DNA of 32,000 nt from Candidatus Saccharimonadota bacterium (GCF_964059045.1 NZ_OZ060402.1:574949-606948); one strand, 5' to 3'; positions 1,993-31,718 are shown, counted from the stretch's first letter. The notes: generated by a model not told the origin, from the letters alone. Translations and numbers: made by a program.

Positions 1993-2083
1993 TTTTTAAT
2001 ATAATACAAACATAATTATAATTTACTTTCAAATGATTTGCATTTGAAAGTAAATTATAATTATGTTTGTATTATATTAAAAA
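1993..2083. repeat. perfect inverted repeat, 43-bp arms with 5-nt spacer, abutting the rpmE SD
   Basis: Segment 1993-2035 (tttttaatataatacaaacataattataatttactttcaaatg) is the exact reverse complement of 2041-2083. I verified this base by base. The spacer is atttg. Confidence 0.97.
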
Positions 2084-2539
2084 TAATCAAAATATAAAAT
2101 ATATATAATTATTTAATATATTAAAAAGAAAAAATAAAAATATAGTAAAAAATTCACTAATTCAGTACTATAATAATCAGTATTTATAATAATAAAAATA
2201 AGTTTATTCAAAGAATAATTTTTTATTATGATAATATATCATCTTTTCCTAAAAATATTTCATTGCCATTTTAATTTGATAGATAATAAATCAAGATTTA
2301 AAATAAATATAAAATATTATTTATGAACCATTATCAATGTAAAATTAAAAAATTAATTAGTCAATAATTTTTTTATAATATAAAACTATAAAATCAAATA
2401 ATTTATCAAAATAATAATATTTATTTTAAATAACATTTATTATTATATAAATTAATCATTTTTATTAAATAAATATAATTAATTTTAGTAATTAATTTTT
2501 TTTAACTATATATCATACTGTGAAGAAGATATAAAAACC

Positions 2540-3067
2540 ATGACAACAATCCTTAGTGTTAGAATTAAAAATAAAATAGTCATTGGTGGCGATGGACAAG
2601 CTACTTTAGGCAAGACAGTAATGAAAAGTAATGTTAAAAAAGTACGTAGCCTTTATAATAATAAAATTATTGCAGGATTCGCAGGAGGAACAGCCGATGC
2701 TTTTACTTTGTTTGAATTATTTGAACAAAAATTAGATATGTATCAAGGTCAATTACAAAGATCTGCTATTGAATTAGCTAAAGATTGGAGAACAGACAGA
2801 ATATTACGTAAATTAGAAGCAATACTTGCTGTAGCTGATCGAACATATTCATTAATTATCACAGGAAACGGAGATGTTATTCAACCAGAAGACGATTTGA
2901 TTGCTATAGGATCAGGAGGTCCATATGCACAATCAGCTGCTCGAGCATTATTAAATAATACTCAATTAGATGCTAAAACTATTGTAAAAAAATCTTTAAC
3001 GATTGCTGCAAATATTTGTATATATACAAATCATAATTTTACAATTAAAGAATTATCTTCCGAATAG
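2540..3067 (+). CDS. hslV: ATP-dependent protease subunit HslV
   Basis: This is a 175-aa [11 protein letters not shown]...GGDGQATLG includes the catalytic Thr2, and [10 protein letters not shown] and GSGG are also present. It matches E. coli HslV and lies immediately upstream of hslU. Confidence 0.95.
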
Positions 3068-3080
3068 TAAGGATGAATCT

Positions 3081-4418
3081 ATGTCTGCAATGACTCCTCA
3101 GGAAATCGTCAAAGAATTAGATAAATTTATCATTGGACAAAATTCTGCTAAACGTGCTGTATCAATAGCACTAAGAAATCGATGGAGAAGAATGCAATTA
3201 AATGATGAATTACGTCATGAAATTACTCCTAAAAATATTTTAATGATTGGTCCGACTGGAGTTGGTAAAACAGAAATTGCTAGAAGATTAGCAAAATTAG
3301 CAAATGCACCTTTTATTAAAGTTGAAGCAACAAAATTTACAGAAGTAGGATATGTAGGGAAAGAAGTAGATTCTATAATTAGAGATTTAACTGATTCTGC
3401 AATAAAAATGATTAGAATGCAAGAAATAAAAAAAAATAACAATAAAGCAGAAGAATTAGCTGAAGAAAGAATTCTCGATGTTCTTGTACCTACTCCAAAA
3501 AACAATTGGGATAAAAATACAAAAAATGAAAAACCATTATCTACTATACAATCATTTCGTAAAAAATTAAGAGAAGGTGATCTTAATGATAAAGAAATTG
3601 AAATCAATGTAGCAGCTATTCCTATGGGAGTAGAAATTATGGCTCCACCTGGAATGGAAGAATTAACAAGTCAATTGCAATCTTTATTTCAAAATTTGAG
3701 CGGAAGAAAACAAAACACAAGAAAATTAAAAATTAAAGATGCAATGAAGCTATTAATTGAAGAAGAATCAGCTAAATTAATAAACCCTGAAGAAATCAAA
3801 AAAAAAGCAATCTATGCTGTAGAACAAAATGGAATCGTATTCATAGATGAAATAGATAAAGTATGTAAAAGAGGCAATAATACTTCAGGAGCAGATATTT
3901 CAAGAGAAGGAGTACAACGTGATTTATTACCATTAGTAGAAGGATGTACAGTATCAACAAAACATGGAATGGTAAAAACTGATCATATTTTATTTATTGC
4001 TTCAGGTGCATTTCAAACTTCTACTCCATCTGATTTGATTCCTGAATTACAGGGTCGTTTACCTATTAGAGTTGAATTAAAAGCTTTAACCATAGATGAT
4101 TTCGAAAGAATCCTCACAGAACCAAATGCTTCGATTACTGTTCAATATAAAGCTTTAATTAAAACAGAAGGAATTACTATTAATTTTACAAAAGAAGGAA
4201 TAAGATCTATAGCAGAAGCTGCTTGGAAAGTCAACGAATCTATGGAAAACATAGGTGCTAGGAGATTACATACTGTACTAGAAAAATTAATGGAAGAAAT
4301 TTCATTTTATGCATCTGACAATAACAGTAAATCTATCATTAATATTAATCCTGAATATGTCAGTCAATATTTAGATGAATTAATATCCAATACTGATCTT
4401 AGTAAATTTATTTTATAA
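3081..4418 (+). CDS. hslU: ATP-dependent protease ATPase subunit HslU
   Basis: [40 protein letters not shown] is near-identical to the E. coli HslU N-terminus. The Walker A motif [15 protein letters not shown] is present. The ATG at 3081 has a taagga SD. The track start at 3003 overlaps hslV and is rejected. Confidence 0.95.
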
Positions 4419-4447
4419 ATTTTTATATAAAATAATAAATAATTTAT

Positions 4448-4485
4448 AAATCACCTATTTTAAATTAATTTAATATAGGTGATTT
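4448..4485 (+). terminator. hairpin downstream of hslU (putative intrinsic terminator)
   Basis: aaatcacctat (4448-4458) pairs perfectly with ataggtgattt (4475-4485). A T-rich tract, actgatttttg, follows. The hairpin starts 30 nt after the hslU stop. Confidence 0.5.
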
Positions 4486-4723
4486 ACTGATTTTTGTTAT
4501 TAATTTTATATCATTTAAATAATATGTTAAATACTAAATAAAATAAAAAATTAATACAATATTATAAATTTTAAAATTGTATTTTAAAATTTAAATCAAT
4601 GATAAATATGAAATGTATATATTATAAATGCTATTTCAAAATTAATATTATTAAAAAATTTATTTAAAAAATATTTTTATTTTGATAATATATAAAATAC
4701 TTAAAATAAAAATATAAAAAAAT

Positions 4724-5470
4724 ATGAATCAATGGATTACTGGAAAAATAATTAATATTAAAAAATGGAATCAAAATCTATTTAGTATAATAATAAAAGC
4801 ACCAATAAATTCATTTTCAGCAGGTCAATTTGCTAAATTATCTGTAATCAATGATAATAAAAAAATACAAAGAGCTTATTCTTATGTTAATGCACCTAAT
4901 AATTCTAATTTAGAATTTTATATTAACTTAATTCCAAACGGAAAATTTACTAACCATTTGTATCAATTAAAAATTAATCAAAATATTATGATTAACAAAC
5001 ATTCATTCGGTTTTTTTACTATTGATGAAATACAAAATTGCGAAATATTATGGATGATGGCCACTGGTACTGGAATTGGTCCATACTTATCTATTTTACA
5101 AGAAGGAAAATGGATAAATAAATTTAATAAAATTGTCTTAATTTATTCTGTAAGATTAAAAAAAGATTTAAATTATTTAGATTTAATATATAAATTAAAA
5201 AAACAATATAAAAATAAAATTATATTTGTAAGTATTGTAACAAGAGAACAATCAATAAAATCTTTAAAAAATAGAATTCCAATATTAATTAAAAATAATA
5301 CTTTAGAAAAAAAAATAAAACTCAATATCGATCCTAAAACATCTCATGTAATGCTATGTGGTAATCCTGATATGGTAAAAGAAACACAAAAAGTATTGCA
5401 AAACCTTAAAAATATGCAAAAAAACTTAAGAAAATCACCAGGACACATTACTACAGAAAATTATTGGTAA
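4724..5470 (+). CDS. fpr: ferredoxin/flavodoxin-NADP+ reductase
   Basis: This is a 248-aa ORF, the same length as E. coli Fpr. W.TGK...W...LFS....AP...F.AGQF.KL and RAYSYVN.P match the FAD-binding motifs of Fpr. Confidence 0.9.
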   Translation: MNQWITGKIINIKKWNQNLFSIIIKAPINSFSAGQFAKLSVINDNKKIQRAYSYVNAPNNSNLEFYINLIPNGKFTNHLYQLKINQNIMINKHSFGFFTIDEIQNCEILWMMATGTGIGPYLSILQEGKWINKFNKIVLIYSVRLKKDLNYLDLIYKLKKQYKNKIIFVSIVTREQSIKSLKNRIPILIKNNTLEKKIKLNIDPKTSHVMLCGNPDMVKETQKVLQNLKNMQKNLRKSPGHITTENYW

Positions 5471-5525
5471 ATAACAGTATAATCTATAAATTAAATATTA
5501 TTAATTGATATATTAAAAATATATA

Positions 5526-6539
5526 TTATACATATTCTGAATTAATACATGAATCTAATGAAAACGAAATAACATCTCGAATAGAATTTAATTTCAAAAT
5601 AATCATAATTAATCTGTCTAAACCTATTGCTACACCAGAATAATAATTTATTTGATTTGTTAAAGATTCTAAAAATATTGTATCTATTGGTTCAACTGTT
5701 AAATTGTAATTTAAACGTACTGAATTATCTTTTAAAAATCTTTTTTTTTGTATACAAATATCAGTTAATTCATGACAACCATTGCCTAATTCAATTCCTT
5801 TAAAAAAAATTTCAAATCTATCAACTAATCTTGAATCATTAATATTAACAATTGCGTTACTATTCTGAGAAGCAGGATAATGATAGATAATTGTAGGATA
5901 AGATTGGCCTATATTTGGTTCTACACCAAAAACAAATAATATCTCTAATAAAGAACTAATCTCATATTGTCCATGTTTATTTAATAAAACTAAATTTTCA
6001 ACTCCTAGATTTTTTACTTTTTCTAACAATATTGTATGATTAGAGGAAAAAGGATCACAATCTAAATATTTTATAAAAACATCTTGATAAGAAATTTTTT
6101 TTACTGTATCAACATCAAACATAGTTTTTAAAAATAATTCTACTTCATTCATAAGATCATGCATATTATATAAAGGACGATACCATTCTAACATAGTGAA
6201 TTCTGGATGATGATATCGACCAATTTCACCATTTCTAAAACTATGACAAATTTGATATATAGCACCAATATTAGCAGCAATTAAACGTTTCATATAATAT
6301 TCTGGACTAGTATTTAACCAAAATTTTAAACATTTATTTTTTTTTTCTGTTTTTTTAAAATAAGTTTTAAAAGATTCTAAATGTATATCAGTGACTCTAA
6401 ATTTAGATAAAACAGGAGTTTCAATTTCTAATATTCCTAAATTTAAAAAAAAAGATCGAATTTTTGTCATAATTCTAGAACGATTAACTAAATTAGAAAT
6501 TTTTGCTGTCGGTTTCCAATCATATAATTTATTTTCCAT
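5526..6539 (-). CDS. epmA: elongation factor P--(R)-beta-lysine ligase (truncated class II LysRS paralogue)
   Basis: W.P.A.I.NL..R..IM..IR.FF, TSPEYYMKRL, SFRN.E.GRYH.PEFTMLEWYRP and G.A.G.DRL match E. coli EpmA (YjeA/PoxA). The C-terminus is about 10 aa longer than in E. coli. Confidence 0.9.
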   Translation of the reverse strand: MENKLYDWKPTAKISNLVNRSRIMTKIRSFFLNLGILEIETPVLSKFRVTDIHLESFKTYFKKTEKKNKCLKFWLNTSPEYYMKRLIAANIGAIYQICHSFRNGEIGRYHHPEFTMLEWYRPLYNMHDLMNEVELFLKTMFDVDTVKKISYQDVFIKYLDCDPFSSNHTILLEKVKNLGVENLVLLNKHGQYEISSLLEILFVFGVEPNIGQSYPTIIYHYPASQNSNAIVNINDSRLVDRFEIFFKGIELGNGCHELTDICIQKKRFLKDNSVRLNYNLTVEPIDTIFLESLTNQINYYSGVAIGLDRLIMIILKLNSIRDVISFSLDSCINSEYV

Positions 6540-6780
6540 AATAATCCATAAAATTAAAAATTTAACTATAGTATATAAATGCTATACCTATAAATTAAAA
6601 ATAAAAATTGTTCTTAATATTATCTTCAAAAAATATAAAAATGCCTATATTTTATATCTAATAGAAAAAAAATATTTTTTATGTTATATTAAAAAATATT
6701 TCTAAAAATAATATTAAGAATATTAACTAATAATTTAAAATAATAAAAATATTTTATTATTATCAATAAAATTTATATTT

Positions 6781-7272
6781 ATGAATAAAAAAGTTATTTT
6801 TCCAGGAACTTTTGATCCAATTACATATGGACATTTAGATATTATTAAAAGAATTTCTTTAATATTTGATAATATCATAATTGCAATTTATTGTAATTCT
6901 AAAAAAAAAACTATGTTTAATTTAAAAGAACGAATTAAATTAATTCAACATACTACAATAAAATTAAAAAATATAAAAAAAATTTTTGGATTTAATGATC
7001 TAATAACAAATTTAGCAAAAAATGAAAAATCAAGTATATTAATTAGAGGAATTAGATCCATATCTGATTTTGAATATGAAAAAAAAATGGCAATGATAAA
7101 TAAAAATTTAAATCCTAATATAGAAAGTATATTCTTATTTGCATCACAAAATTTATCTTTTATTTCTTCCTCCATGGTCAAAAAAATAGCTATATATGGT
7201 GGTGATTTAAAAAACTACATCCCTAAAAATGTATCAGATGCATTGTATAAAAAAATAAAAAATAATACATAA
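6781..7272 (+). CDS. coaD: phosphopantetheine adenylyltransferase
   Basis: This is a 163-aa ORF. The N-terminus reads PGTFDPITYGHLDII.R (the T/HxGH nucleotidyltransferase motif), and RG.R...DFEYE and SSS.VK are present, as in E. coli CoaD/KdtB. Confidence 0.92.
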   Translation: MNKKVIFPGTFDPITYGHLDIIKRISLIFDNIIIAIYCNSKKKTMFNLKERIKLIQHTTIKLKNIKKIFGFNDLITNLAKNEKSSILIRGIRSISDFEYEKKMAMINKNLNPNIESIFLFASQNLSFISSSMVKKIAIYGGDLKNYIPKNVSDALYKKIKNNT

Positions 7273-7386
7273 AAATATCATTTAAAAATAAATATTAATG
7301 AATTATCATTTACAGTGATAATTAATTAATAAAATATCATTTATTAAAATATAATAATTATTTTTGAAATAAATGATAATTTTAAA

Positions 7387-7429
7387 TATTATTACAGTCT
7401 GAAATTTTTATTTTCAGACTGTAATAATA
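7387..7429. terminator. perfect 18-bp stem / 7-nt loop hairpin between convergent coaD and the orphan ORF
   Basis: tattattacagtctgaaa (7387-7404) is the exact reverse complement of tttcagactgtaataata (7412-7429). It contains the only G/C-bearing core (cagtctg) in an otherwise AT-only spacer. Confidence 0.55.
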
Positions 7430-7477
7430 ATATTTAAAAACAATAAAAATTTTATTTAATAAATTTTAAATTAAAAT

Positions 7478-8557
7478 TTATTTAAAATAATATGAATATT
7501 TTATGTTTGGATTTCTATTAGTTGTTAATAAAATAGATGCTCTTAAACCAAAAGAAATAAATTTCTTTTCATTATTTTTGTTAACAAATTTTAATTTTGC
7601 TGTATGTGTCACACTTAATTTTAATAAACCAGTTTTGGTAGGTTTTAATTCATAAAGAACATTAGTATTTTTTGGTTCATAATGAAAAAATTCAGGCGTT
7701 GATGTTAACATTTTCATGTATGCCGGAGCTAGTAATTCTTGATTAGCGTATGTAGAAATAAGTTGTCTAGTTTCTAATTTAGGAAATGCTAATTTAAATT
7801 GAGTTAACATATCTCTTTTTGTAGGAGCATCAACAACATAACCTTTAATTTTAACAATAGAATCTGGGTAGTCTAATAAAAATTTCTTATCTAATTCAGA
7901 GGTTTCTTTTAAACTTTGAAACTGATTGTATAATTTATGAGAAAATCTCCAGGTATCAGGTGCAGTATTTAACTTAACCATTTTTTTCCAAGTTACATTG
8001 TCTAATTCTGGATTTGAAAAAATAGCATCTGATAAATTTTTTTGATGTGTATTTGTACTTGAATTTAAAAAAAATTTTTTAATATTTATTAAATCTTGTT
8101 CAGCTTGTTTGTTCTTTAAAGTTTGTTCCGGAGAAATGGAAAGACTATGTTGAATTAAAGTATGATTAGAATCATATTTATTTAAATCACCATTTACATC
8201 ATGTTGTGTAATATTTTTTAAAAGAGAACTTAATAATTGTATTCTTTCTTCTAAATTAACTGGTTTATTATTTAAAGAGATATGATGTAATTGATGTGAA
8301 TTAATTTTTTTTGAATGCGGTCCCATAGAATAAGTAATTTGTTCGTTATTTTTAGAATTACGAATTTTAATTACACTATATCTAGAAGAATTTATTTGAT
8401 CATTATTATTATGTTTGATTCTTTGAGATCTATCAGATTTTATATGAATACTCTTATTATTTACCCTTTTGTTGTTCTTTTGTAAACGATCATTAGATCT
8501 ATCACTTTCATTAATACTTATTAATCGGGTGTTGTTATCAAGTAAAATTGATGACAT
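7478..8557 (-). CDS. hypothetical protein, lineage-specific orphan (low-complexity N/S/K/H-rich N-terminal half, globular-looking C-terminal half)
   Basis: This is an uninterrupted 359-codon ORF with an ATG start and an agga SD about 9 nt upstream. It is the only long ORF in the 1.7-kb coaD-rsmJ gap. Every spurious ORF in this AT-rich window is 130 aa or shorter and shadows a real gene. I recognise no family. Confidence 0.7.
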   Translation of the reverse strand: MSSILLDNNTRLISINESDRSNDRLQKNNKRVNNKSIHIKSDRSQRIKHNNNDQINSSRYSVIKIRNSKNNEQITYSMGPHSKKINSHQLHHISLNNKPVNLEERIQLLSSLLKNITQHDVNGDLNKYDSNHTLIQHSLSISPEQTLKNKQAEQDLINIKKFFLNSSTNTHQKNLSDAIFSNPELDNVTWKKMVKLNTAPDTWRFSHKLYNQFQSLKETSELDKKFLLDYPDSIVKIKGYVVDAPTKRDMLTQFKLAFPKLETRQLISTYANQELLAPAYMKMLTSTPEFFHYEPKNTNVLYELKPTKTGLLKLSVTHTAKLKFVNKNNEKKFISFGLRASILLTTNRNPNIKYSYYFK

Positions 8558-8592
8558 AGTTTTATATCCTATGTTAAAATTCTATAATTTCT

Positions 8593-8621
8593 TTTTTACT
8601 TCAATTTGATTTTTTAGTCAA
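8593..8621 (-). promoter_or_regulatory. candidate sigma70 promoter for the orphan ORF (TTGACT-17 nt-TAAAAA)
   Basis: On the minus strand, ttgact (8621..8616), a 17-nt spacer and taaaaa (8598..8593) lie about 35 nt upstream of the ATG at 8557. -10-like hexamers are common in such AT-rich DNA, so support is weak. Confidence 0.25.
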
Positions 8622-8979
8622 GACATGAGAAGCAATATTGAATATAGTATTTTTATATATACAGTTTTTTTTTAGAATATTTTGTAAAAATCACCATCGC
8701 ATGATATTAAAAAGATTAAAAATAAAATTAAACAAACAAAAAAATCAAAAAAAAATTTTATTTAATTAAATAATTATTGTATATTATTCATTTATAATTA
8801 AAAATTATTTTTACAAAAAATATTTTTAAATTATCAATAAATATATCCTTATAAATTAATTTTAAAAATAAAAATGTTTTTATGATTATATTATTAAATT
8901 AATGAAATTTATTTTTTTAAAATAAAAATATTAACAAACATAAAAATTATTCAATCAAGCTAATATTCATGGTCATAGA

Positions 8980-9738
8980 TTGTATTTAAAAAACTATAAA
9001 ATTTATATTTTGAATCAAAATTCGAATAAAAGTATTTATTTTTTACATTTAAAAAATGATTTAAATGAAAATTTAACTATTGATTATATTGATAACAAAT
9101 ATCAAATTTTTCAACGTAATGAAAAAAATGTTAAAAAAATATGGATTGAATTTAATTCAAAAAAATTAAATTACAGAACAAATCAAAAACAAAAAAAAGA
9201 ACCTTTAGCTAAAGCCGTAGGCATTAAAAAAAATTATTACCCAAATATTTTAGATGCAACTGCAGGATTTGGCACAGACGCTTTTATATTAGCTTCATTA
9301 GGATGCCAAGTTTTAATGTTAGAAAGAAATCCTATTGTCGCCATTTTATTAGCTAATGGTTTAGATAGAGGATTTAAAAATAAAAAAATAGGAAAATGGC
9401 TTAAAAAAAAATTATCTTTACTGTATACATCTAGTGAAAAATTTTTAATTCAAACAAAAACTATACCTGATGTGATATATTTAGATCCTATGTTTCCAAT
9501 CATTAAAAAAAAAGCAAAATCAAAAAAAACAATAAATATTTTAAAAACTATTGTAAAAGAACAAGATAATTCTAATTTATTATTAAATCCTGCTAGATTA
9601 CTAGCTAAAAAACGAGTAGTTGTTAAAAGACCTTTGCATGCTCCTTTTTTAAATAATGTAAAAACATATTCAATTATAAAAACTAAAAAACATCGTTTTG
9701 ATATTTACCAACCATTTAATAAAGAATATAATAAATAA
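8980..9738 (+). CDS. rsmJ: 16S rRNA (guanine1516-N2)-methyltransferase
   Basis: LAKAVGIKK.Y.P...DATAG.G.DAF.LAS.GC.V.MLERNP, YLDPMFP and RVVVKRP match E. coli RsmJ (YhiQ). There is no in-frame ATG near the N-terminus, so a TTG start at 8980 is assumed and the start is uncertain. Confidence 0.85.
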   Translation: MYLKNYKIYILNQNSNKSIYFLHLKNDLNENLTIDYIDNKYQIFQRNEKNVKKIWIEFNSKKLNYRTNQKQKKEPLAKAVGIKKNYYPNILDATAGFGTDAFILASLGCQVLMLERNPIVAILLANGLDRGFKNKKIGKWLKKKLSLLYTSSEKFLIQTKTIPDVIYLDPMFPIIKKKAKSKKTINILKTIVKEQDNSNLLLNPARLLAKKRVVVKRPLHAPFLNNVKTYSIIKTKKHRFDIYQPFNKEYNK

Positions 9739-10000
9739 TATTTAAATATTTTTATATTAGTTGTATATTCCAACATTTATCACATTCTAAAAAAAATCTT
9801 AAAATTTTTATACTATTTTAAAATAAATAAAATACATTACATATAAAACATCATTGTAGTTTTTCAAATAATTAATATAATAATATCTTTTAAATTATTA
9901 ATAATTTATAATCAAATTTAAAACTATATGAATAAAAATTAAAAAATATTATATATTAGTATTATTCCTTCAAATAAAAAATCAATTAATAATATAAATA

Positions 10001-11479: not shown

Positions 11480-11688
11480 AAAACTTAAATCCATTATAAA
11501 TATATAAACTATTTTTATTATCTGTGACAAATTATGATATAGAAAGCAAAATATATAATTTTAATAAAAAATAAAATTTATCAATGTCAAAATGATAGAA
11601 TATTAAAACAAATTATTATCTATCATTTTTTTATCTTATTTTTATCATTGATAATAATTCATACAATGAAAATAAAATTACAAATTAA

Positions 11689-12884: not shown

Positions 12885-13077
12885 GTTAGGAAGTATATTA
12901 TTCTTATTATTTATTTTTTTTTGAAATTAACCAATATTGTTAATTTTTGTAATAATTTCATAAAAAAATCATTCTTGGATATTATTTATAATTATAAATA
13001 ATTTTCATAAATAAAAAATAAAAATTTATTATTTAAAATGTTCTTATATTTTTATTTTCAATAATCATAGTAATCTT

Positions 13078-13935: not shown

Positions 13936-13979
13936 TTATTATCCTAAATGTCAATGTTTAATTAAATTAAATTTGATAA

Positions 13980-14312: not shown

Positions 14313-14466
14313 AATATACTCTATTTTTTATTTATTATATAAAATAAATTATTTAATTTTTAAAAAAAAAGTTCTTAATATGATAATTTATAAATTATTT
14401 GAAATAGTTTAAAAATTGTTTGTGTAATTGTTGATAACAATACAACAAAAAAAATAAAAATAAAGT

Positions 14467-18408: not shown

Positions 18409-18438
18409 GCGGTTTTTCTAGACTATAATAAAAACCGC
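18409..18438 (-). terminator. intrinsic terminator downstream of trxA / start of rho leader region
   Basis: The minus strand reads gcggttttt-attatagtctag-aaaaaccgc, a 9-bp stem with a GC-rich base, followed by tagattttttttatt. It begins 17 nt after the trxA stop. Confidence 0.6.
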
Positions 18439-18454
18439 AGATTCTATGTTAAAA

Positions 18455-18802: not shown

Positions 18803-18881
18803 GTTAACTCTATATTTTTATATTTTATATAATAAAATAATAACAAATATTTAATTAATTTTAAATAAAAAAATAATGTTC

Positions 18882-20897: not shown

Positions 20898-20991
20898 AAA
20901 AATATATTTCGATTGTTTTTAATTAAATATGTATAAAAATATTTTTAAATCTATTTCAAAAATAATTTAACATTTTATTAAAAATTATAAA

Positions 20992-21027
20992 AACAGAAAA
21001 AATAAATAGAGTTTTATTTTTTCTGTT
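20992..21027 (-). terminator. intrinsic terminator downstream of ilvC
   Basis: There is a perfect 15-bp stem (20992-21006 with 21013-21027) and a 6-nt loop. On the minus strand, tttttataattttt follows it. The hairpin starts 31 nt after the ilvC stop. Confidence 0.55.
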
Positions 21028-21058
21028 ATAATTAAATTAAAAAATATATACTTAAATA

Positions 21059-22531: not shown

Positions 22532-22628
22532 TTTTTTTTCCAAAATATACTAATATATTATTAATAATAATATCAAAAAACAATTGATGTATATGAATAA
22601 AAAATTATAAAAATTTAAATAATTTCTA

Positions 22629-24485
22629 TTAAAAATTTAATTTATTTACATCACGAACAGCACCTTGATCAGCACTAGTAGCTAAACATGAATATGCTTT
22701 TAAAGCATTTGAAATAATTCTCTTCCTTTGAACATAAGGTGTATATGCTTGATTGTTTCTTGATTCTTCTATATCTTTACGTGTTAATAATTCTTGATTT
22801 GTTACTTGTAATTCAATAGTTCTATTTGGAATATTAATCATGATTACATCATTATTTTGAACTAGTGCAATTATTCCTTTATTTGCAGCTTCAGGCGAAA
22901 CATGTCCTATAGATAAACCTGATGTACCTCCTGAAAATCTACCATCGGTAATTAAAGCACAAGATTTATCTAATCCCATAGATTTTAAATATGTTGTAGG
23001 ATATAACATCTCCTGCATACCAGGTCCACCTTTAGGACCTTCATATCTAATTAAAATAATATCACCTGATTGAATATAATTATTTAAAATTGCATATACA
23101 GCATCTTCTTGACTTTCATATACTTTTACTGGTCCTTGAAAAACATAATTTTTTTTATCTACGCCAGAAGTTTTAACAATACATCCATTTTTAGCAATAT
23201 TACCATATAACACTGCTAAACCACCTTGTTGACTATAAGCATAATCAATAGATCTTATACATCCAAAACGACGATTGGTATCAAGTTCATCCCATCTAAA
23301 TGATTGAGAAAAAGGAATTACTGTTTTAATTCCCATCGGGCCAGCACGATACATCTTAATAATATCAAGATCTTTATTATTTATTATATTATATTTTTTT
23401 ATTGTTTCTTCCAATGTTATTTGTAAAATATTTTTAACTGTAGTATCTAATAAAAAAAAATTATTTAATTCACCTAAGATTCCCATAACACCTCCAGCTC
23501 GATGCATGTCTTCCATATGGTAAATTGATGAACTCGGTGCTATTTTACAGATATTAGGTATTTTTTTAGATAAATCATTAATATCTGACATATTAAAATC
23601 AATATCACCTTCTTTTGCTGCTGCTAGTAAATGCAATACAGTATTGGTTGATCCACCCATTGCTATATCTAATTTCATTGCATTATGAAAAGAATTTTTA
23701 CAAGCTATATTACGTGGTAAAACATTATAATTATCATTATGATAATAAGCTTTTGTAATATCTACAATTGTTTTACCTGATTGTACAAATAGTTTTCTCC
23801 GATCAACATGAGTGGCAAGTAATGTACCATTACCTGGCAATGCTAATCCTAGTGCTTCCATTAAACAATTCATTGAATTAGCAGTAAACATTCCGGAACA
23901 TGAACCACATGTTGGACAAGCAGAGTCTTCTATTTTTTTTGACTCTACATCAGATACATTAGGATTGGAACCTTGAACAATGGCATCAATTAAATCTATT
24001 TTTACAATTTCATTTTTTTGATTTAATATTCTTCCTGCTTCCATTGGTCCACCAGAAACAAAAACAGATGGAATATTTAGACGTAAAGCTGCCATTAACA
24101 TTCCAGGAGTAATTTTATCACAATTTGAAATACACACCATAGCATCAACACAATGTGCATTAATCATATATTCAATAGAATCTGCAATAATTTCTCGGGA
24201 TGGTAAAGAATACAACATCCCAGAATGTCCCATAGCAATACCATCATCTATAGCAATTGTATTAAATTCTTTAGATACACCACCAGAAGATTGAATGGAT
24301 TTTGCTACAATATTACCTAATTCTCTTAAATGAATATGACCTGGGACAAATTCTGTGAAAGAATTAACGATAGCAATAATTGGTTTTTGAAAATCTAAAT
24401 CTGTCATTCCAGTAGCTTTCCATAAAGCTCGAGCCCCTGACATATTTTTACCATGAATTGTTGTAGCGGATCGATATTGAGGCAT
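22629..24485 (-). CDS. ilvD: dihydroxy-acid dehydratase
   Basis: This is a 618-aa [69 protein letters not shown] and [21 protein letters not shown] match E. coli IlvD. The ATG at 24485 has an aggag SD. Confidence 0.97.
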
Positions 24486-24496
24486 ATTAAACTCCT

Positions 24497-24626
24497 TTTT
24501 AGATCATTACAGTGTTAATTAAAAACAAGGTTGAATCTAGTTAAAACAATATATTATTAGGCCTAATAATATATTGTTTTAACTAGATTCAACCTTGTTT
24601 TTAATTAACACTGTAATGATCTAAAA
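24497..24626. repeat. 130-bp perfect spacerless palindrome (65-bp arms, centre AGGCCT) between tRNA-Trp and the ilvD SD
   Basis: Segment 24497-24561 is the exact reverse complement of 24562-24626. I verified this base by base. The first mismatch occurs at the 24496/24627 pair. Confidence 0.97.
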
Positions 24627-24645
24627 TTTATTTTAAATTTTTTAA

Positions 24646-24719
24646 CAAAGGTGGAGGGAATTGAACCCACAACCCTCGGTTTTGGAGACCGATGCTCTAC
24701 CTAATTGAGCTACACCTTT
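24646..24719 (-). tRNA. trpT: tRNA-Trp (anticodon CCA)
   Basis: The minus strand reads aaaggtgtagctcaattaggtagagcatcggtctccaaaaccgagggttgtgggttcaattccctccacctttg. The anticodon loop is ctCCAaa and the discriminator is G, as in E. coli trpT. There is one U-U mismatch in the T-stem. No 3' CCA is encoded. Confidence 0.9.
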
Positions 24720-24907
24720 AAAATATTTATATATATTATTTTAAATAATTAAAAATAAAACAATAATATTAATTATACTATAATTAACAAAATAATTACA
24801 GTATATAAAAATATATTTTGAATAATACATCATAACTATATCAAAAGTTATTTAATTAAATTGTATTATTTGTAATGATTTTAAAATAAAAATTAATCCA
24901 ATAATTC

Positions 24908-24937
24908 TTGTTCAAAAAATATATTTAGTAGTATAAT
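24908..24937 (+). promoter_or_regulatory. candidate sigma70 promoter for the isc operon (TTGTTC-18 nt-TATAAT)
   Basis: ttgttc (24908-24913) and a consensus tataat (24932-24937) lie about 115 nt upstream of iscS. The call rests on the motif only, in about 90% AT DNA. Confidence 0.25.
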
Positions 24938-25052
24938 GAATAATATACTAAATTAATAACAATATTATATTTTATAATTATTTAATTATTTAATCAAATT
25001 AAAAAATCAGTTAAATGTTTAAAATACTAAATTAAAAATTGTTGAGGTTCAA

Positions 25053-26267
25053 TTGTTAAAATTTCCAATTTATTTAGATTATGCTTCTACTACTCCCATG
25101 GAACCAAAAATAGTAGAAAAAATGATAAAATATTTAACATTATCAGGTACATTTGGTAATTCTGCTTCACGTTCTCATTTATTTGGTTGGGAAGCTGAAG
25201 AAGCGGTAGATATTGCTCGTAATCAAATTTCTGATTTAATTAATGCTGATCCTCGTGAAATTATATTTACTTCAGGTGCTACAGAATCAAATAATTTAGC
25301 TATTAAAGGTGTGATAGATTTTTATCAATCAAAAGGTAATCATATTATTACTAGTACGACAGAACATAAATCAGTTTTAGATACATGTCGATATCTTGAA
25401 AGTAAAAATATTAATGTCACTTATCTTAATCCTAATCATGATGGTATTATCGATATTAATAAATTAAAATCTTTTATTTCAAAAAAAACAATATTAATTT
25501 CTATTATGCATGTCAATAATGAAACTGGAGTTATACAACCAATTGAACAAATTGCAGAAATATGCAATCAATATAAAATTATTTTTCATGTAGATATGAC
25601 ACAAAGTATAGGGAAAATTCCTATCGATTTAGAAAAAATAAATATTAGTTTAATTTCATTTAGCGCTCATAAAATTTATGGACCTAAAGGTATTGGAGTA
25701 TTATATGTTAGAAGAAAACCAAGAATTAGATTAGTTAGTCAAATACATGGTGGAGGTCATGAAAGAGGTTTAAGATCCGGAACATTACCAGTACATCAAA
25801 TTATAGGTATGGGAGAAGCATGTCAATTAGCTAAAAAAAATATTACTATAGAACCACAAAGATTAAATACATTAAAAAACAGATTATGGAATGGTATTAA
25901 AGATATTGAAGAAGTTTATTTAAATAGTAACTTAAATAAAGGTGCTCCACATATTTTGAATGTGAGTTTTAATTATGTGGAAGGAGAATCATTAATCATG
26001 GGATTAAAAAATTTAGCAATTTCTTCTGGATCTGCATGCACATCTACTAGTTTAGAACCATCTTATGTATTACGCGCTTTAGGTTTAAAAGATGAATTAG
26101 CACATAGTTCTATTAGATTTTCTATTGGTTTATTCACTACTAAACAAGAAATTGATTATACTATTGAATCTATTCATGAATCTATAATAAAATTAAGAAA
26201 TTTATCTCCTTTATGGGAAATGTATAAATCAGGCATTAATATAGAATCAATTGATTGGAAAGCATAA
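25053..26267 (+). CDS. iscS: cysteine desulfurase IscS
   Basis: This is a 404-aa ORF, the same length as E. coli Isc[46 protein letters not shown] (PLP Lys), [20 protein letters not shown] (catalytic Cys) and LSPLWEMYK are present. The start is a TTG at 25053 with a gagg SD 5 nt upstream. No nearby in-frame ATG exists. Confidence 0.96.
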
Positions 26268-26299
26268 ATTATAAATACACATCAAAAAAGGAAAATAAT

Positions 26300-26707
26300 A
26301 TGACGTATAGTAAAAAAGTAATTGATCATTATGAAAATCCTCGAAATGTAGGTTCATTTTCGGAAAATGATATTAATATTGGAAGCGGTTTAGTCGGTGC
26401 ACCTTCTTGTGGAGATGTCATGAAATTACAAATCAAGGTAAACAATGAAGGTATTATTGAAGATGCTTGTTTTAAAACTTATGGTTGTGGTTCAGCAATT
26501 GCATCAAGTTCATTAATGACAGAATGGGTAAAAGGAAAATCATTGCAAGAAGCTGAAAATATTAAAAATACTAATATTGCTGAAGAATTAGAATTACCAC
26601 CAGTAAAAATTCATTGTTCTATTTTAGCAGAAGATGCTATTAAAGCAGCTATATCAGATTACAAAAGTAAAAAACTAAAAAATCAACAATTTGATTCAAA
26701 AATTTAA
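26300..26707 (+). CDS. iscU: Fe-S cluster assembly scaffold IscU
   Basis: MTYSKKVIDHYENPRNVGSF, GAP.CGDVMKLQIKVN.EGIIEDA.FKTYGCGSAIASSSL and PPVKIHCSILAEDAIKAAI.DYKSK are near-identical to E. coli IscU. The ATG at 26300 has an aaagga SD. The track start at 26255 overlaps iscS and is rejected. Confidence 0.96.
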   Translation: MTYSKKVIDHYENPRNVGSFSENDINIGSGLVGAPSCGDVMKLQIKVNNEGIIEDACFKTYGCGSAIASSSLMTEWVKGKSLQEAENIKNTNIAEELELPPVKIHCSILAEDAIKAAISDYKSKKLKNQQFDSKI

Positions 26708-26767
26708 GTAAATTGAAAATAAATTTTGATTTATAATGTTTATTTTTATGTTTAACATCAGGAAAAT

Positions 26768-27289
26768 ATGAATTACTTTCAATTATTTAATTTACCAGAA
26801 AAATTTTTAATTGATCAAAAATTACTTGTTAAAAATTTTTATGATTTACAAAAAAAATTTCATCCAGATTTATTTATTTTAGATACACCATTAATACAAC
26901 AAAAAGCGCTAAAACAATCTATATTAATTAATAATGCATTTCAAACATTAAAAAATCCATATCATCGTGCTGAGTATCTTTTAAATTTAAATAATATTGA
27001 TCTAAATGATAAAAAATTTAAATTAAATGATAATAATTTTTTTAAAAAATACTTAAATTTATGTGAAAATTTTAACAAAATAAAATTGATGTCTCTTTCC
27101 AAAAATAAATTAATAATATTTAACAAAAATATAATCATGATAAAAATAAAACAATATAATGAAAAAATTGCAATAGAATTAGAAAATAAAAAATGGTTAT
27201 ATGCAAATTATACAATACAGAAAATATATTACTTTATAAAATTACAAAAAAATATAGAAAAAGAAATAAGAGCAAATAATATTTATTAA
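26768..27289 (+). CDS. hscB: Fe-S cluster co-chaperone HscB (J-protein)
   Basis: M.YF.LF.LP..........L...F.DLQ...HPD (the J-domain HPD motif) and N.A.QTL..P..RAEYLL.L match E. coli HscB. The gene lies between iscU and hscA. Confidence 0.9.
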   Translation: MNYFQLFNLPEKFLIDQKLLVKNFYDLQKKFHPDLFILDTPLIQQKALKQSILINNAFQTLKNPYHRAEYLLNLNNIDLNDKKFKLNDNNFFKKYLNLCENFNKIKLMSLSKNKLIIFNKNIIMIKIKQYNEKIAIELENKKWLYANYTIQKIYYFIKLQKNIEKEIRANNIY

Positions 27290-27290
27290 T

Positions 27291-29147
27291 ATGGAAATAT
27301 ATATGTTGCATTTAAATAATGTAAATAAATTCAAAATTGATATTGATCCAAAAGAAAAATTTTCCATTGGTATCGATTTAGGTACAACTTATTCTTTAGT
27401 AGCTATTGGAAACAATCATAATCTACATATATTAACACATCAATCTCAAAAAAAATTATTACCATCAGTTGTATACTATGGAAAAGAAAAAATAATAATT
27501 GGTAAATCAGCTATTAAAAATATTGATACTGATGTTACGAATACTATTACTTCTATAAAAAGGTTAATGGGATTATCTATATCAAAAATTAAAAACTTAT
27601 ATCCAAATATTCCTTATCTTTTAGAAGAAAATAAAAATAATGAAGTTATAATTAAAACAAGAAGAGGTAAATTTTCACCATATCAAATATCTAGCTTAAT
27701 TATTCAAAAAATTATCAATCAAGTCAAATATATTTATCAAAGAAATATTGATTATGCAGTTATTACAGTACCTGCTTATTTTGATGACATACAAAGAAAT
27801 GAAACTAAAAAAGCAATCATGTTAGCAGGATTAAATAATTTTCGTTTATTAAATGAACCGACAGCTGCGGCAATTGCATATGGATTAGATAATAATCAAA
27901 AAGGAATAATAGCAATATATGATTTTGGGGGTGGTACTTTTGATTTTTCATTATTAAAATTAAATCTTAATATTTTTGAAGTATTAGCTACTAACGGAAA
28001 TTCAGACTTAGGTGGTGATGATTTTGATAATTTATTATCTAATTACATACTATCTCAATTAAAGAAAAAAAAAAATAATTTAACTATACTAGAAAAACAA
28101 AAAATTTATTTACTTGCAAAAAATATTAAAAAAAAGTTATCAACAAAACTAGTTGTTCCTTTTATCATAGATAATATTTATTATTCAATTACGAGAATAA
28201 AATTTAATTCTTTAATTGAACCTTTAATAAATAAAACATTAATTAGTTGTAGTAATGCTATTAATGACGCTAATCTTGATTTAGTTAATATAGATAAAAT
28301 TATTTTAGTAGGAGGTTCTACATATATTCCATTCGTTCAAACAAAAGTAAAAAATTTTTTCAAAAAAAAACCGTGTATGACTATTAATCCAGAAGAAGCT
28401 GTAGTATTAGGTGCTGCTATTCATGCAAATAATTTAATTTCTAAAAAAGATAAAAATAAAATATTATTATTAGATGTATTACCTCTATCATTAGGTATTG
28501 AAGTTATAGGAGGAGTAGTAGAAAAAATCATTATGAGAAATACTACAATCCCTACTTCTAAAACAAAAGAATTCACTACTTACCAGGATGGACAAACATC
28601 AATTAGTATTCATATACTACAAGGAGAAAGAGAATTAATTCAACATTGTCGTTCTTTGCAACGTTTTATATTAAAAGGCTTGCCGCCTAAACCAGCAGGA
28701 TCACACAAAATTTTTATTACTTTTGAAATTAATGCTGATGGTATATTAAATGTTATTGCCGAAGAAAAAAAACATAAAATTAAAAAAAAATTAATAATTC
28801 ATAATATATTTAATATTAAAAAAAATTTTATATCAAAAATGATTCAAGAATTTAATAATTATTTTTCTGAAGATAAAAAAGAAATAAAAAAAATAGAAGT
28901 AGTATTAAAAGCAAAAAAAATTCTAGAAATTGTTTATACTCATATAAAAATAAATTTAGATTATATTCACCCAGAAAAATTAAAATTAATTCAAAATATA
29001 TATCTTGAACTAAAAATAGCTATCAAAAACAAAAATATTTCTTGTATTGAAAAAAATATAAAAATACTAGAAGAAAATAGTCAATATTTTATTAATATTA
29101 AACAAAAAAATATACAAAAAAAATATATTAATCAATTATCTATATAG
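27291..29147 (+). CDS. hscA: Fe-S cluster chaperone HscA (Hsp70 family)
   Basis: GIDLGTT.SLVA, ITVPAYFDD.QR..TK.A..LAGL...RLLNEPTAAAIAYGLD, GGGTFD.S.L, LVGGST..P.V, LLDV.PLSLG.E..GG..EK.I.RNTTIP and HILQGEREL...CRSL.RF.L.G.P are present. An alternative ATG lies 4 codons downstream at 27303. Confidence 0.94.
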   Translation: MEIYMLHLNNVNKFKIDIDPKEKFSIGIDLGTTYSLVAIGNNHNLHILTHQSQKKLLPSVVYYGKEKIIIGKSAIKNIDTDVTNTITSIKRLMGLSISKIKNLYPNIPYLLEENKNNEVIIKTRRGKFSPYQISSLIIQKIINQVKYIYQRNIDYAVITVPAYFDDIQRNETKKAIMLAGLNNFRLLNEPTAAAIAYGLDNNQKGIIAIYDFGGGTFDFSLLKLNLNIFEVLATNGNSDLGGDDFDNLLSNYILSQLKKKKNNLTILEKQKIYLLAKNIKKKLSTKLVVPFIIDNIYYSITRIKFNSLIEPLINKTLISCSNAINDANLDLVNIDKIILVGGSTYIPFVQTKVKNFFKKKPCMTINPEEAVVLGAAIHANNLISKKDKNKILLLDVLPLSLGIEVIGGVVEKIIMRNTTIPTSKTKEFTTYQDGQTSISIHILQGERELIQHCRSLQRFILKGLPPKPAGSHKIFITFEINADGILNVIAEEKKHKIKKKLIIHNIFNIKKNFISKMIQEFNNYFSEDKKEIKKIEVVLKAKKILEIVYTHIKINLDYIHPEKLKLIQNIYLELKIAIKNKNISCIEKNIKILEENSQYFINIKQKNIQKKYINQLSI

Positions 29148-29158
29148 GATATATAATT

Positions 29159-29494
29159 ATGCCAATAATAAAATTTTTATATTATGAAAAAAAAATACTT
29201 AAAAATCTCATAATCAATGTTAAATCTGGTCAAACTATTTTAGATGTTGCATTATCAAACAATATTTCGATGGAACATGCATGTGAAAAATCTTGTGCTT
29301 GTAGTACATGTCATTGTATTATTAAAAAAGGATTTAATTCATTATCAAAAATTACTGAAAAAGAAGAAGACTTATTAGATAAAGCATGGGGGTTAAATCA
29401 ATTTAGTCGTTTAGGATGTCAAGCAAAAATCGGAAAAGAAAACATAGAAGTTGAAATACCTATTTATACAATTAATCATTCAAAAAAATATTAA
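29159..29494 (+). CDS. fdx: [2Fe-2S] ferredoxin
   Basis: This is a 111-aa ORF, the same length as E. coli Fdx. G.TILD.AL.N.I..EHACEKSCAC.TCHCI...GF.SL....E.E.D.LDKAWGL...SRL.CQA......EIP.YTINH matches E. coli Fdx. Confidence 0.94.
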   Translation: MPIIKFLYYEKKILKNLIINVKSGQTILDVALSNNISMEHACEKSCACSTCHCIIKKGFNSLSKITEKEEDLLDKAWGLNQFSRLGCQAKIGKENIEVEIPIYTINHSKKY

Positions 29495-29545
29495 TGATAT
29501 AATTATTAAAAAATATTAATTTTTTTAAAAAAATATAGATAACAA

Positions 29546-30946
29546 TTAATATTTTACATAAGGATTTTTATTTTCTTTAAAATTTAATTTTATAGGTGTA
29601 TTAATTAATCCTAATTCACTTTGAAAATAATTTTTCAAATAACGTTTATAGGATGTTAACACACTATTTAATTTATTACCATGTATAATGATTAAAAATG
29701 GATTAAATCCTCCTATATGAGCATATTTAAATTTTATTTTTTTACCTTTTGACATAGGCGGTTCACATTTTTTTAGAGCTTCAATCATGATTTTAGTCAA
29801 TTTCGCACTACTTATTTTTAATATTGCAGTATTATAAGATTTTTTTGAAATTTCTAAAATTTTTTTAATATTAATAGAATATAAAGCTGAAATAAAATAA
29901 ATAGTAAAATTTTTTAAAAATTTTAATTTATAATATAAATCATGCTTGAAATTTTTTCTTTCATTAAGATTTAATAAATCCCATTTATTAACTAAAATTA
30001 TAACTGTTTTACCTAATTTTATAATTAAATTTAATAAATTTAAATCTTGATGTGTAATCATATTCTCTATATCTATTAATAGTAATACTATATTACTATC
30101 ATTCATAGATAACAAAGTTTTTTTTATTGAAAGGTTTGTTATAGAATTATTTTTATTTTTTTTTTTTGCTATACCAGCAGTATCAGTTAAAATAAATTGT
30201 TGACCATTACAAAAAAAAGGAATATCAATACTGTCTCTAGTTGTTCCAGCAACAGAACTAGTTATGACTCTATTTTTTTTTAATAATGCATTTATTAATG
30301 TAGATTTTCCTACATTTGGTCTTCCTATAATTGTTATTTTTAATAATGAATTATTTTTTTTGTTAAATTTTAAAACGGGCTTTTGATCTAAATATAATAA
30401 TGATTTATTAAAGATATGATTTTTTTGTTCATATTCTTTATTAATTAAAGTAATTAAGTATTCGTTAATTAATTTAGTAATACCAATACCATTTGATGCT
30501 GAAATAAAATGTACAAGTGGAAATCCTAAACTATGAAATTCTAATAAAATTGATGATTCACATAATCCATCGATTTTATTGACAACTAAAATAATATTTT
30601 TATGTAACATTCTAATTTCTTTTGCTATTCTGTAATCTACTGGTAATAAACCATCTCGAGCATTAACAACAAAAATAATTATATTTGAATCATTAATTGC
30701 TATTTTAGTTTGCAAATTACTTTTTTTTGTAATTAAATAATTTAGATTTAGTTCATTTTCATATTCTAATCCTGCAGTATCAATTATAAATATTTTTTTG
30801 TTGTTAATAAATATAGTACTAATTTTTCTATCTCTAGTAGTTCCATGAATATTAGATACTAAAGCATCTCTAGTTTTAGTTAATTGATTAAATAAAGTAG
30901 ATTTACCTACATTAGTTTTTCCAATTATAGAAATAATTGGTGTCAT
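29546..30946 (-). CDS. der: ribosome-associated GTPase Der (EngA), two tandem GTPase domains
   Basis: There are two G1 motifs (GKTNVGKSTLFN.LT.TRDALV and GRPNVGKSTLINALL), two DTAG motifs and two NK.D motifs, plus a C-terminal KH-like domain. The ATG at 30946 lies 5 nt after a strong aaggagg SD. The track start at 30952 is a GTG inside that SD. Confidence 0.92.
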   Translation of the reverse strand: MTPIISIIGKTNVGKSTLFNQLTKTRDALVSNIHGTTRDRKISTIFINNKKIFIIDTAGLEYENELNLNYLITKKSNLQTKIAINDSNIIIFVVNARDGLLPVDYRIAKEIRMLHKNIILVVNKIDGLCESSILLEFHSLGFPLVHFISASNGIGITKLINEYLITLINKEYEQKNHIFNKSLLYLDQKPVLKFNKKNNSLLKITIIGRPNVGKSTLINALLKKNRVITSSVAGTTRDSIDIPFFCNGQQFILTDTAGIAKKKNKNNSITNLSIKKTLLSMNDSNIVLLLIDIENMITHQDLNLLNLIIKLGKTVIILVNKWDLLNLNERKNFKHDLYYKLKFLKNFTIYFISALYSINIKKILEISKKSYNTAILKISSAKLTKIMIEALKKCEPPMSKGKKIKFKYAHIGGFNPFLIIIHGNKLNSVLTSYKRYLKNYFQSELGLINTPIKLNFKENKNPYVKY

Positions 30947-31031
30947 TTTCACCTCCTTATTTTTTATTGAACAAATTAAATATTTTTTAAATTTATTTTG
31001 GTTTTAAAAAAATAATTTATCAAAAATTAAA

Positions 31032-31643
31032 TTAATGACTATTGATATAATTTAATTTCATTCTAATAATATTTTTTGTTCGTTTATCCAATTGATATAA
31101 TAAACTTTTTTTCCATAAATATAAAGTTAAACTCTTATTTTTCTCTAATAAAAATAAATCTCCTTTAATATCTTCTATTATTTTTTTCCAATTATTATTC
31201 TTAATTGTATTTAAAACTTTTTTAGCAATTATGATATTTTGTTGTTCAATTTGCATTCTGGCTATTCTTAATTGAATAATAATTTTTAAATTTTCATCTG
31301 AAATATATGGTAAACAAAAATTTAATATCTGAATAGAAAAAGGAATATAATTCATTTGAACAAAAATTTTAGATAATTTTAAACTAATTAAAATACCATA
31401 AATATTTTTATTTTTAATAATAAATTTAAATACTCTTTTATTATATAAAATATTTTTTTTATTTAATTGATGCATTAATTGAGAATATTTTTGTAATCTA
31501 ATATTTTTTTCATAATATTCATTTTTTTTATAGAAATAACAACCCACCAAAAACATAAAAATAAAAATAAAAAAAATACTAAAAAAATATTTATTTTTCA
31601 TAAATTTATTTAAAAAAATAAATATTTTAAATAAAATAAACAT
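31032..31643 (-). CDS. yfgM: YfgM-family membrane-anchored TPR-like ancillary SecYEG/chaperone protein
   Basis: This is a 203-aa ORF with an N-terminal hydrophobic anchor. SDENLKIIIQLRIARMQIEQ matches E. coli YfgM TSDENLKAVINLRLARVQVQ. It lies upstream of der, as in E. coli. The ATG at 31643 has an aagga SD. Confidence 0.8.
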   Translation of the reverse strand: MFILFKIFIFLNKFMKNKYFFSIFFIFIFMFLVGCYFYKKNEYYEKNIRLQKYSQLMHQLNKKNILYNKRVFKFIIKNKNIYGILISLKLSKIFVQMNYIPFSIQILNFCLPYISDENLKIIIQLRIARMQIEQQNIIIAKKVLNTIKNNNWKKIIEDIKGDLFLLEKNKSLTLYLWKKSLLYQLDKRTKNIIRMKLNYINSH

Positions 31644-31652
31644 ATATATTTC

Positions 31653-31718
31653 CTTTTGTATAAAATATGTCTAAATGCATCTATTAATAGATGCATTTAG
31701 ACATATTTTATACAAAAG
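31653..31718. repeat. 66-bp perfect spacerless palindrome (33-bp arms) abutting the yfgM SD
   Basis: cttttgtataaaatatgtctaaatgcatctatt (31653-31685) is the exact reverse complement of 31686-31718. The outer 10 nt of the distal arm (tatacaaaag) are also the junction sequence of the adjacent tandem array. Confidence 0.97.

Follow-up and report, generated by a model that had tools for sequence, protein, structure and literature searches.

The 32,000-nucleotide stretch of DNA presented above (the window) belongs to Buchnera aphidicola (Eriosoma grossulariae), an aphid endosymbiont, and contains three long palindromes with perfectly complementary arms, upstream of rpmE, ilvD and a yfgM-like gene (Table 1), each of which ends at the Shine-Dalgarno (SD) sequence of the gene that it precedes. 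A perfect palindrome is also present between tRNA-Trp and ilvD in the Buchnera of Eriosoma lanigerum and Eriosoma harunire, with substitutions as well as insertions and deletions (indels) mirrored in both arms from species to species. It is, on balance, probable that template switching during replication makes these palindromes and keeps them perfect, and that selection on the ribosome-binding site (RBS) sets their outer edge. The data for E. grossulariae Buchnera are those of this window, in which the GC content is 16-27%.

Exact enumeration of perfect inverted repeats across the window found all three palindromes, with the same arm lengths as in the original prediction; their total lengths are 66, 91 and 130 bp, and all lie in intergenic spacers. 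There are no mismatches in the 43 + 65 + 33 pairs of the window, nor in the 49 + 49 pairs of the ilvD orthologues. Against a null model of 100 segment-wise dinucleotide shuffles of the window, six perfect repeats with arms of at least 15 nt were observed (shuffled mean, 0.05) and four with arms of at least 25 nt (none in any shuffle). A chance origin of the long perfect repeats is excluded; the comparison with composition-matched shuffles that had been suggested with the original prediction, run on the 32-kb window, gave an observed number far above the shuffled one. The original prediction suggested enrichment throughout the genome; the excess shown here is that of these 32 kb. The inverted repeats of the window are either perfect or approximately 70-77% complementary, which is the level of chance, and those with arms of 78-95% complementarity (I1-I3, I9 and I12) consist of perfect cores, or of a short exact stem (I12), plus chance-level flanks. 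No decaying palindromes were seen among the inverted repeats of the window.

The proximal edges of the palindromes lie 8 nt (rpmE), 11 nt (ilvD) and 9 nt (yfgM) from the ATG, in agreement with the predicted 8-11 nt, at the complement of GGA, AGGAG and GGAA, respectively. The rpmE palindrome begins right after the SD complement tcc (1990-1992); the ilvD palindrome adjoins the SD complement ctcct (24492-24496) and, at its other end, lies 18 nt from the 3' end of tRNA-Trp; and the first base of the yfgM palindrome itself belongs to the SD complement (ttcc, 31650-31653). In sense orientation, with a slash marking the edge, the palindromes end as ...AAAAA/GGAttattATG (rpmE), ...AAAA/AGGAGtttaatATG (ilvD) and ...CAAAAG/GAAatatatATG (yfgM). 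With random placement in the 6.1 kb of spacer in the window, an edge would fall 6-13 nt before a start codon with a probability of about 3.5% per element, and the joint probability of SD-side placement for the three elements is about 5e-5, given a distance range that was picked after the data had been viewed. The positional bias toward the SD sequence is real by this test. The location of all three on the minus strand, which had been presented as part of the pattern, is not significant because about half of the genes of the window are on that strand. Perfect repeats with arms of at least 18 nt are rare in the other fetched loci (1.65 Mb), and the Eriosoma ilvD orthologues are the only ones there that abut a start codon.

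The nearest relatives by IlvD identity are the Buchnera of E. lanigerum (81%) and, far more distantly, that of E. harunire (72-75%); in both, the palindrome fills nearly the whole spacer between tRNA-Trp and ilvD. The arms are 61-68% identical between the three species, with homology over the outer approximately 36 nt and a common core (AATTAAAAAyAAGGTT), and their alignment scores were matched by only 2-6 of 500 shuffled arms. Toward the axis the arms have turned over beyond alignment between species, while the outer edge is kept at the SD sequence in all three (gap of 10-11 nt). Of the 34 alignable pairs, 15 show a change in both arms and none in a single arm, every cell being Watson-Crick; this double-sided pattern was reached by 0 of 500 shuffles and approached by no slid register. 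Ten of 16 double changes are transversion swaps (e.g., A-T to T-A), for which there is no pairing intermediate, and indels between species are likewise mirrored in both arms. No G·U pair occurs in the 239 stem pairs of the three window palindromes and the two ilvD orthologues together, and complementarity reaches to 0-1 nt of the axis in four of the five (loops of 0, 0, 2 and 1 nt), the rpmE palindrome having a 5-nt loop. The absence of G·U pairs, the symmetry into the axis and the mirrored transversions and indels are what copying of one arm from the other gives, unlike compensatory evolution at the RNA level. The bases at the axis cannot pair in an RNA hairpin, and RNA-level selection would therefore not keep them complementary.

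Table 1. Palindromes, smaller repeats and associated genes. Coordinates are those of the window, except that L081 and L085 denote fetched loci of E. lanigerum and E. harunire Buchnera, respectively.
Feature	Coordinates	Strand	Details
rpmE leader palindrome	arms 1993-2035 and 2041-2083	minus	43-nt arms, 100% complementary; loop 2036-2040 (5 nt)
ilvD leader palindrome	arms 24497-24561 and 24562-24626	minus	65-nt arms, 100% complementary; loop 0; axis GG/CC
yfgM leader palindrome	arms 31653-31685 and 31686-31718	minus	33-nt arms, 100% complementary; loop 0
E. lanigerum ilvD palindrome	L081 7508-7556/7559-7607		49-nt arms, 100% complementary; loop 2 nt; 10 nt from ATG
E. harunire ilvD palindrome	L085 9892-9940/9942-9990		49-nt arms, 100% complementary; loop 1 nt; 10 nt from ATG
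rpmE	1781-1984	minus	ribosomal protein L31, 67 aa; NF000612, TIGR00105
ilvD	22629-24485	minus	dihydroxy-acid dehydratase, 618 aa; 100% identity to E. grossulariae Buchnera protein
yfgM-like gene	31032-31643	minus	TPR_21 family, 203 aa; PF09976, 3e-15; upstream of der; L081 orthologue in same Pfam family
tRNA-Trp (CCA)	24645-24720	minus	co-oriented with ilvD, directly upstream of ilvD palindrome
25-nt-arm perfect inverted repeat	1721-1779		loop 9; between convergent tRNA-Gly and rpmE; exact scan
18-nt-arm perfect inverted repeat	7387-7429		between convergent coaD and ORF 7478-8557; terminator-like position; exact scan
15-nt-arm perfect inverted repeat	20992-21027		downstream of ilvC, 94 nt upstream of rep; exact scan
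Tandem array	31709-31979		55 bp x 4.9 copies (98% matches); array starts with the last 10 nt (TATACAAAAG) of the yfgM distal arm, at its outer end

A template-switch type of DNA process, as proposed in the original prediction, is strongly indicated by the ilvD series, with its 61-68% arm identity, fully Watson-Crick pairing, 15 double-sided against no one-sided changes, and mirrored indels. Template switching is reported to turn quasipalindromes into perfect palindromes independently of RecA (PMC7202029, PMC5941160), to be able to create, maintain and extend perfect stems (PMC8794818, PMC13100816), and has been proposed to explain the conservation of perfect repeats in Proteobacteria (PMC5941160). 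Both Buchnera and Blochmannia lack RecA and RecJ (PMC1193525), so any homogenisation of arms in Buchnera must be RecA-independent. A close precedent is quasipalindrome correction (the Ripley model, with thyA and lacZ reporters of Escherichia coli), which is RecA-independent, converts imperfect repeats into perfect ones, makes multi-base changes that look compensatory in one step, and can create and extend perfect stems; it predicts mirrored substitutions and indels and no one-sided changes, as found in the ilvD palindromes. The arms here are Watson-Crick-perfect, the interspecies changes of the ilvD arms are mirrored, and in four of the five palindromes the symmetry continues near the axis, as expected of template switching. 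Most of the published cases concern single events or stems no longer than about 10-20 bp, unlike the present palindromes with their arms of 33-65 nt, ilvD orthologues in three species with approximately 35% arm divergence, and an edge fixed at the RBS.

We infer both template switching and a selective origin of the boundary, and the following course of events may be envisaged. A short inverted duplication would appear in a 5' leader or spacer, after which the nascent strand would copy the opposite arm, or itself, by the RecA-independent route known from quasipalindrome correction. A mutation in one arm would then be either erased or mirrored into the other arm, and the sequence would drift while the symmetry would never be lost. 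Outward symmetrisation would stop at the SD sequence, since this sequence would be destroyed if overwritten, and locked in a stem if its complement were copied into the opposite arm. The shared layout would then represent the border between a mutational process and purifying selection and not a sequence-specific regulatory device, and transcribed stems would affect processing or translation, if at all, only secondarily.

Several observations weigh against this explanation. All three long palindromes abut an SD sequence, with the low joint probability given above, whereas a purely neutral process should also leave some elsewhere in spacers. That growth stops at the SD sequence is what we infer, and intermediates were not observed. 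Despite the deletion bias of the genome, the ilvD palindrome has lasted through deep divergence (IlvD identity of 72-81%), which may mean that it is under selection. The rpmE and yfgM palindromes are known from a single assembly, and alignments of the rpmE and yfgM leaders with those of the sister genomes are too noisy, these being AT-rich, to show an ancestral arm.

Of the three Eriosoma Buchnera, only that of E. grossulariae has the palindromes at rpmE and yfgM. No perfect repeat of at least 13 nt was found upstream of rpmE or yfgM in the Buchnera of either E. lanigerum or E. harunire. In the syntenic approximately 40 kb, each of these sister genomes has the ilvD palindrome only, plus one 18-nt repeat in E. 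lanigerum, against six repeats in the window. The yfgM leaders are linked across species by a single motif (TAGATGCAT), which is present in both arms. As to the question, put with the original prediction, of whether sister genomes keep the positions while the sequences co-vary, they do so at ilvD but not at rpmE or yfgM.

A different explanation is that the palindromes are selected RNA hairpins of 5' leaders, transcribed within tRNA-Trp-hairpin-ilvDC, rpmE and yfgM-der leaders; they could act as RNase III sites that free tRNA-Trp and trim the leader to the SD sequence, as 5' protection, or as dampers of translation by removal of the standby site, with template switching merely the means by which selection obtains perfect stems. 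This is possible, although rather unlikely. When folded as RNA, the palindromes reach -53.2 kcal/mol (rpmE, z -14.3), -88.1 kcal/mol (ilvD, z -19.8) and -44.3 kcal/mol (yfgM, z -13.1), with the SD sequence unpaired and immediately 3' of the stem in all three, and at 33-65 bp the stems would have the length required of generic RNase III substrates. The constancy of the edge at 8-11 nt from the ATG in five of five cases, with the SD sequence free beside the stem, fits such a role, as does the retention of the ilvD element in three lineages that have diverged deeply. The ilvD palindrome stands too close to tRNA-Trp for a separate promoter to fit between the two, so that their co-transcription with ilvDC is likely, which also favours a transcribed hairpin.

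Selection for an RNA hairpin does not by itself account for the lack of any G·U pair in the 239 stem pairs or for complementarity that continues through loop positions. Of the 11 Buchnera loci examined, 10 have tRNA-Trp ahead of ilvD, and the palindrome is missing from the ilvD spacer of nine other Buchnera (Pemphigus, Tetraneura, Mollitrichosiphum, Chaitophorus, Periphyllus, one Buchnera metagenome-assembled genome and three Logan assemblies), eight of which have a co-oriented tRNA-Trp upstream of ilvD. The further relatives in which it was sought, without success, comprised four Logan contigs and seven Buchnera loci from GTDB. Six non-Eriosoma spacers of this kind, of similar or larger size, are unstructured when folded (z of -1.2 to +1.3, Tetraneura at -3.9 apart), and the hairpin is therefore not a conserved requirement. 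Furthermore, no regulatory logic common to rpmE, ilvD and yfgM is obvious, even the closest sister genome lacks the elements of rpmE and yfgM, and -10-like hexamers in the proximal arm of the ilvD palindrome, if used, would leave the stem out of the mRNA. As between a process and a convergent function, which the original prediction offered as alternatives, the process is favoured; no positive evidence was found for a function, the corresponding spacers of other Buchnera being unstructured. A selected RNA function is a doubtful possibility that is required by nothing observed here.

The spacer of Tetraneura akinire Buchnera, which folds better than chance unlike those of the other non-Eriosoma Buchnera, contains a perfect repeat with 15-nt arms of A and T only (L004 9283-9315), 40 nt after tRNA-Trp in the same spacer as the Eriosoma palindrome.

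A function at the level of DNA was also considered, with the palindrome as a cruciform or double-stranded element such as a symmetric promoter cassette, a replication pause or priming site close to the origin-proximal end of the chromosome, or a site for a dimeric protein. The symmetry is perfect at the DNA level, and hexamers resembling the -10 element (TGTAAT, TACAAT and TAAAAT in the three species, read by eye) are located in the proximal arm, their distance from the ilvD ATG being constant at 20-21 nt. However, promoter and terminator scans of the leaders gave the same number of matches as in shuffles, promoter-like matches being no commoner than in shuffled AT-rich DNA; lengths of 66-130 bp far exceed any operator; and no sequence is common to the three elements. 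DNA-binding regulators are very few in Buchnera. A DNA-level function is accordingly held to be improbable.

Membership of a mobile or repeat family (a miniature inverted-repeat transposable element (MITE), a repetitive extragenic palindromic (REP) sequence, or an element like the Rickettsia palindromic element (RPE)) might be thought of for intergenic palindromes that have a terminal T-run in common. Similarity among the three arms is not above the shuffled expectation, neither the window nor 90 fetched loci contain further copies of the arms, and the ilvD element is orthologous and vertically inherited. A scan of the window with Rfam at the gathering score returned five tRNAs and no other family, at the palindromes or elsewhere. 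This agrees with the original prediction that the elements are not a MITE or other repeat family; such a family, which would show a shared sequence in multiple copies, is effectively refuted, and its probability is negligible. An intrinsic terminator was likewise rejected: there is no terminator match at the ilvD or yfgM palindrome, the matches at rpmE are an inner stem followed by stem sequence, and the elements lie at the 5' ends of genes, followed by the SD sequence with no U-tract after the stem.

It is very improbable that the palindromes are artefacts, i.e., fold-back chimeras that arose in the library or were made by the assembler. Those of rpmE and yfgM occur in one assembly only, and palindromes are known to disturb assembly (PMC3017870). 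The ilvD palindrome is found at the same site in three independently made genomes with differing sequences. In the independent Logan k-mer assembly of E. harunire reads (SRR33632139; L086 1-40), a 35-kb contig breaks off within the proximal arm of this palindrome, after 30 nt, as expected of a true inverted repeat, and an artefact is ruled out for the ilvD element. The three palindromes of the window are internal, with unique flanks on both sides, which fold-back would not give in a closed chromosome. A short Logan contig that had been suspected of breaking at a palindrome was found not to do so.

The original prediction was too strong in its claim of novelty, since spacer palindromes of Blochmannia (PMC3017870) and template-switch hairpins (PMC8794818, PMC5941160, PMC7202029) have already been published. 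Long spacer palindromes of 62-136 bp, numbering 6-20 per genome, are described for Blochmannia, an ant endosymbiont, in PMC3017870 and PMC3268670, where a role in control of transcription or stabilisation of mRNA was proposed. The two systems are alike in belonging to AT-rich, reduced, RecA-less genomes of insect endosymbionts and in having palindromes of the same size class that are almost always in spacers and break short-read assemblies; all three palindromes of the window are, like those of PMC3017870, at least 60 bp in total and located in spacers of an AT-rich reduced genome. They differ in that up to three mismatches and 20-nt gaps were allowed in Blochmannia, and the accessible text reports no positions relative to start codons, no comparison of orthologues and no Buchnera. 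In the literature searched, no Buchnera palindromes of this kind, no orthologous series with symmetric divergence of long arms, and no consistent edge at an RBS were found.

Hairpins beside an RBS that are processed by RNase III include the phage lambda N leader, E. coli adhE and sites in the early region of phage T7. These resemble the palindromes of the window in having a long double-stranded stem immediately 5' of the SD sequence in a polycistronic or long-leader transcript, but they are imperfect, much shorter, conserved in sequence and cleaved in experiments, whereas the present stems are perfect DNA palindromes. The RNase III class calls for approximately 20 bp or more of double-stranded RNA in the transcript; given transcription of both arms, the present stems would fold with predicted energies of -44 to -88 kcal/mol. 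Intrinsic terminators and 5' stabilisers of the ompA type share with them a stable hairpin in an untranslated region, which in the ompA type stands only a few nucleotides from where the transcript starts. The small 25-, 18- and 15-nt repeats of the window stand at 3' ends and are terminator-like; the three large palindromes differ from terminators and ompA stems in being followed by the SD sequence instead of a U-tract, in having the T-run inside the 5' arm, and in standing at the 5' ends of genes.

The IlvD and HslV proteins encoded in the window are 100% identical to those of Buchnera aphidicola (Eriosoma grossulariae). The large open reading frames of the window, one apart, are clearly assigned, and the gene order is orn, tRNA-Gly, rpmE, hslVU, fpr, epmA, coaD, an open reading frame (ORF) without assignment, rsmJ and pitA, followed by a major facilitator superfamily (MFS) transporter gene, dapF, cyaY, hemCD, three tRNA genes, rho, trxA, rep, ilvC and ilvD, and finally tRNA-Trp, iscS-iscU-hscBA-fdx, der and the yfgM-like gene. 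The unassigned ORF (7478-8557, minus strand, 359 aa), which lies between coaD and rsmJ, matches no NCBIfam or Pfam family, and the ORFs in its place in the Buchnera of E. lanigerum and E. harunire (441 and 451 aa, respectively) have no Pfam match either. Downstream of hslU (4438-4495) there is an imperfect hairpin with an 11-bp stem (AAATCACCTAT/ATAGGTGATTT) and a 16-nt loop, followed by a T-run, which is probably an ordinary terminator.

The three smaller perfect repeats that had been noted in other spacers were all found by the exact scan. The edge of the one between tRNA-Gly and rpmE lies 1 nt from the rpmE stop codon (1781-1783), so that rpmE is flanked on both sides by palindromes that halt at its translation signals, a point in favour of the template-switch explanation; this repeat is absent from the Buchnera of E. 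lanigerum and E. harunire. Near-identical tandem arrays, with units that are unrelated between species, are found in all Eriosomatinae Buchnera examined, either 5' of yfgM or in the matching origin-proximal part of the chromosome record: besides that of the window (Table 1), 74 bp x 4.8 copies at 83-434 and 43 bp x 5.9 copies at 437-688 of L081 (E. lanigerum), 62 bp x more than 41 copies, about 2.8 kb, at 1-2847 of L085 (E. harunire), and an unusually GC-rich array of 69 bp x approximately 30 copies at 5012-7171 of L004 (T. akinire). This region looks like a hotspot of slippage or duplication. At the end of the chromosome record of Mollitrichosiphum nigrofasciatum Buchnera (L007, approximately 600-1200) there is an inverted repeat of more than 350 bp with a perfect core of 93-nt arms (795-983), which adjoins no ORF start; it could be real, or an artefact of assembly or circularisation.

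The ilvD series, with approximately 35% turnover of sequence and no loss of symmetry, is an unusually clean natural case of concerted evolution of arms in a RecA-less genome, and it supports template switching, not stepwise compensatory mutation, as the maker and keeper of long perfect stems. It is conceivable, if unlikely, that these are self-renewing leader palindromes specific to the lineage of Eriosoma Buchnera, above all that of E. grossulariae, i.e., template-switch stems of 33-65 bp flush with the RBS that are kept as elements for RNase III processing or for setting translation; if so, they would amount to post-transcriptional control arisen de novo after a near-total loss of regulators, for example through release of tRNA-Trp and fixing of the ilvDC leader. 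If transcribed, the stems would be strong modifiers of mRNA processing and translation for ilvD, a gene of an essential amino-acid pathway important to the aphid host, and they would remove any single-stranded standby site. Palindromes of this kind fragment short-read and k-mer assemblies and are to be expected in Buchnera genome projects. A mutational process combined with selection on the RBS can mimic a designed regulatory layout, which calls for caution in the motif-based annotation of endosymbiont spacers.

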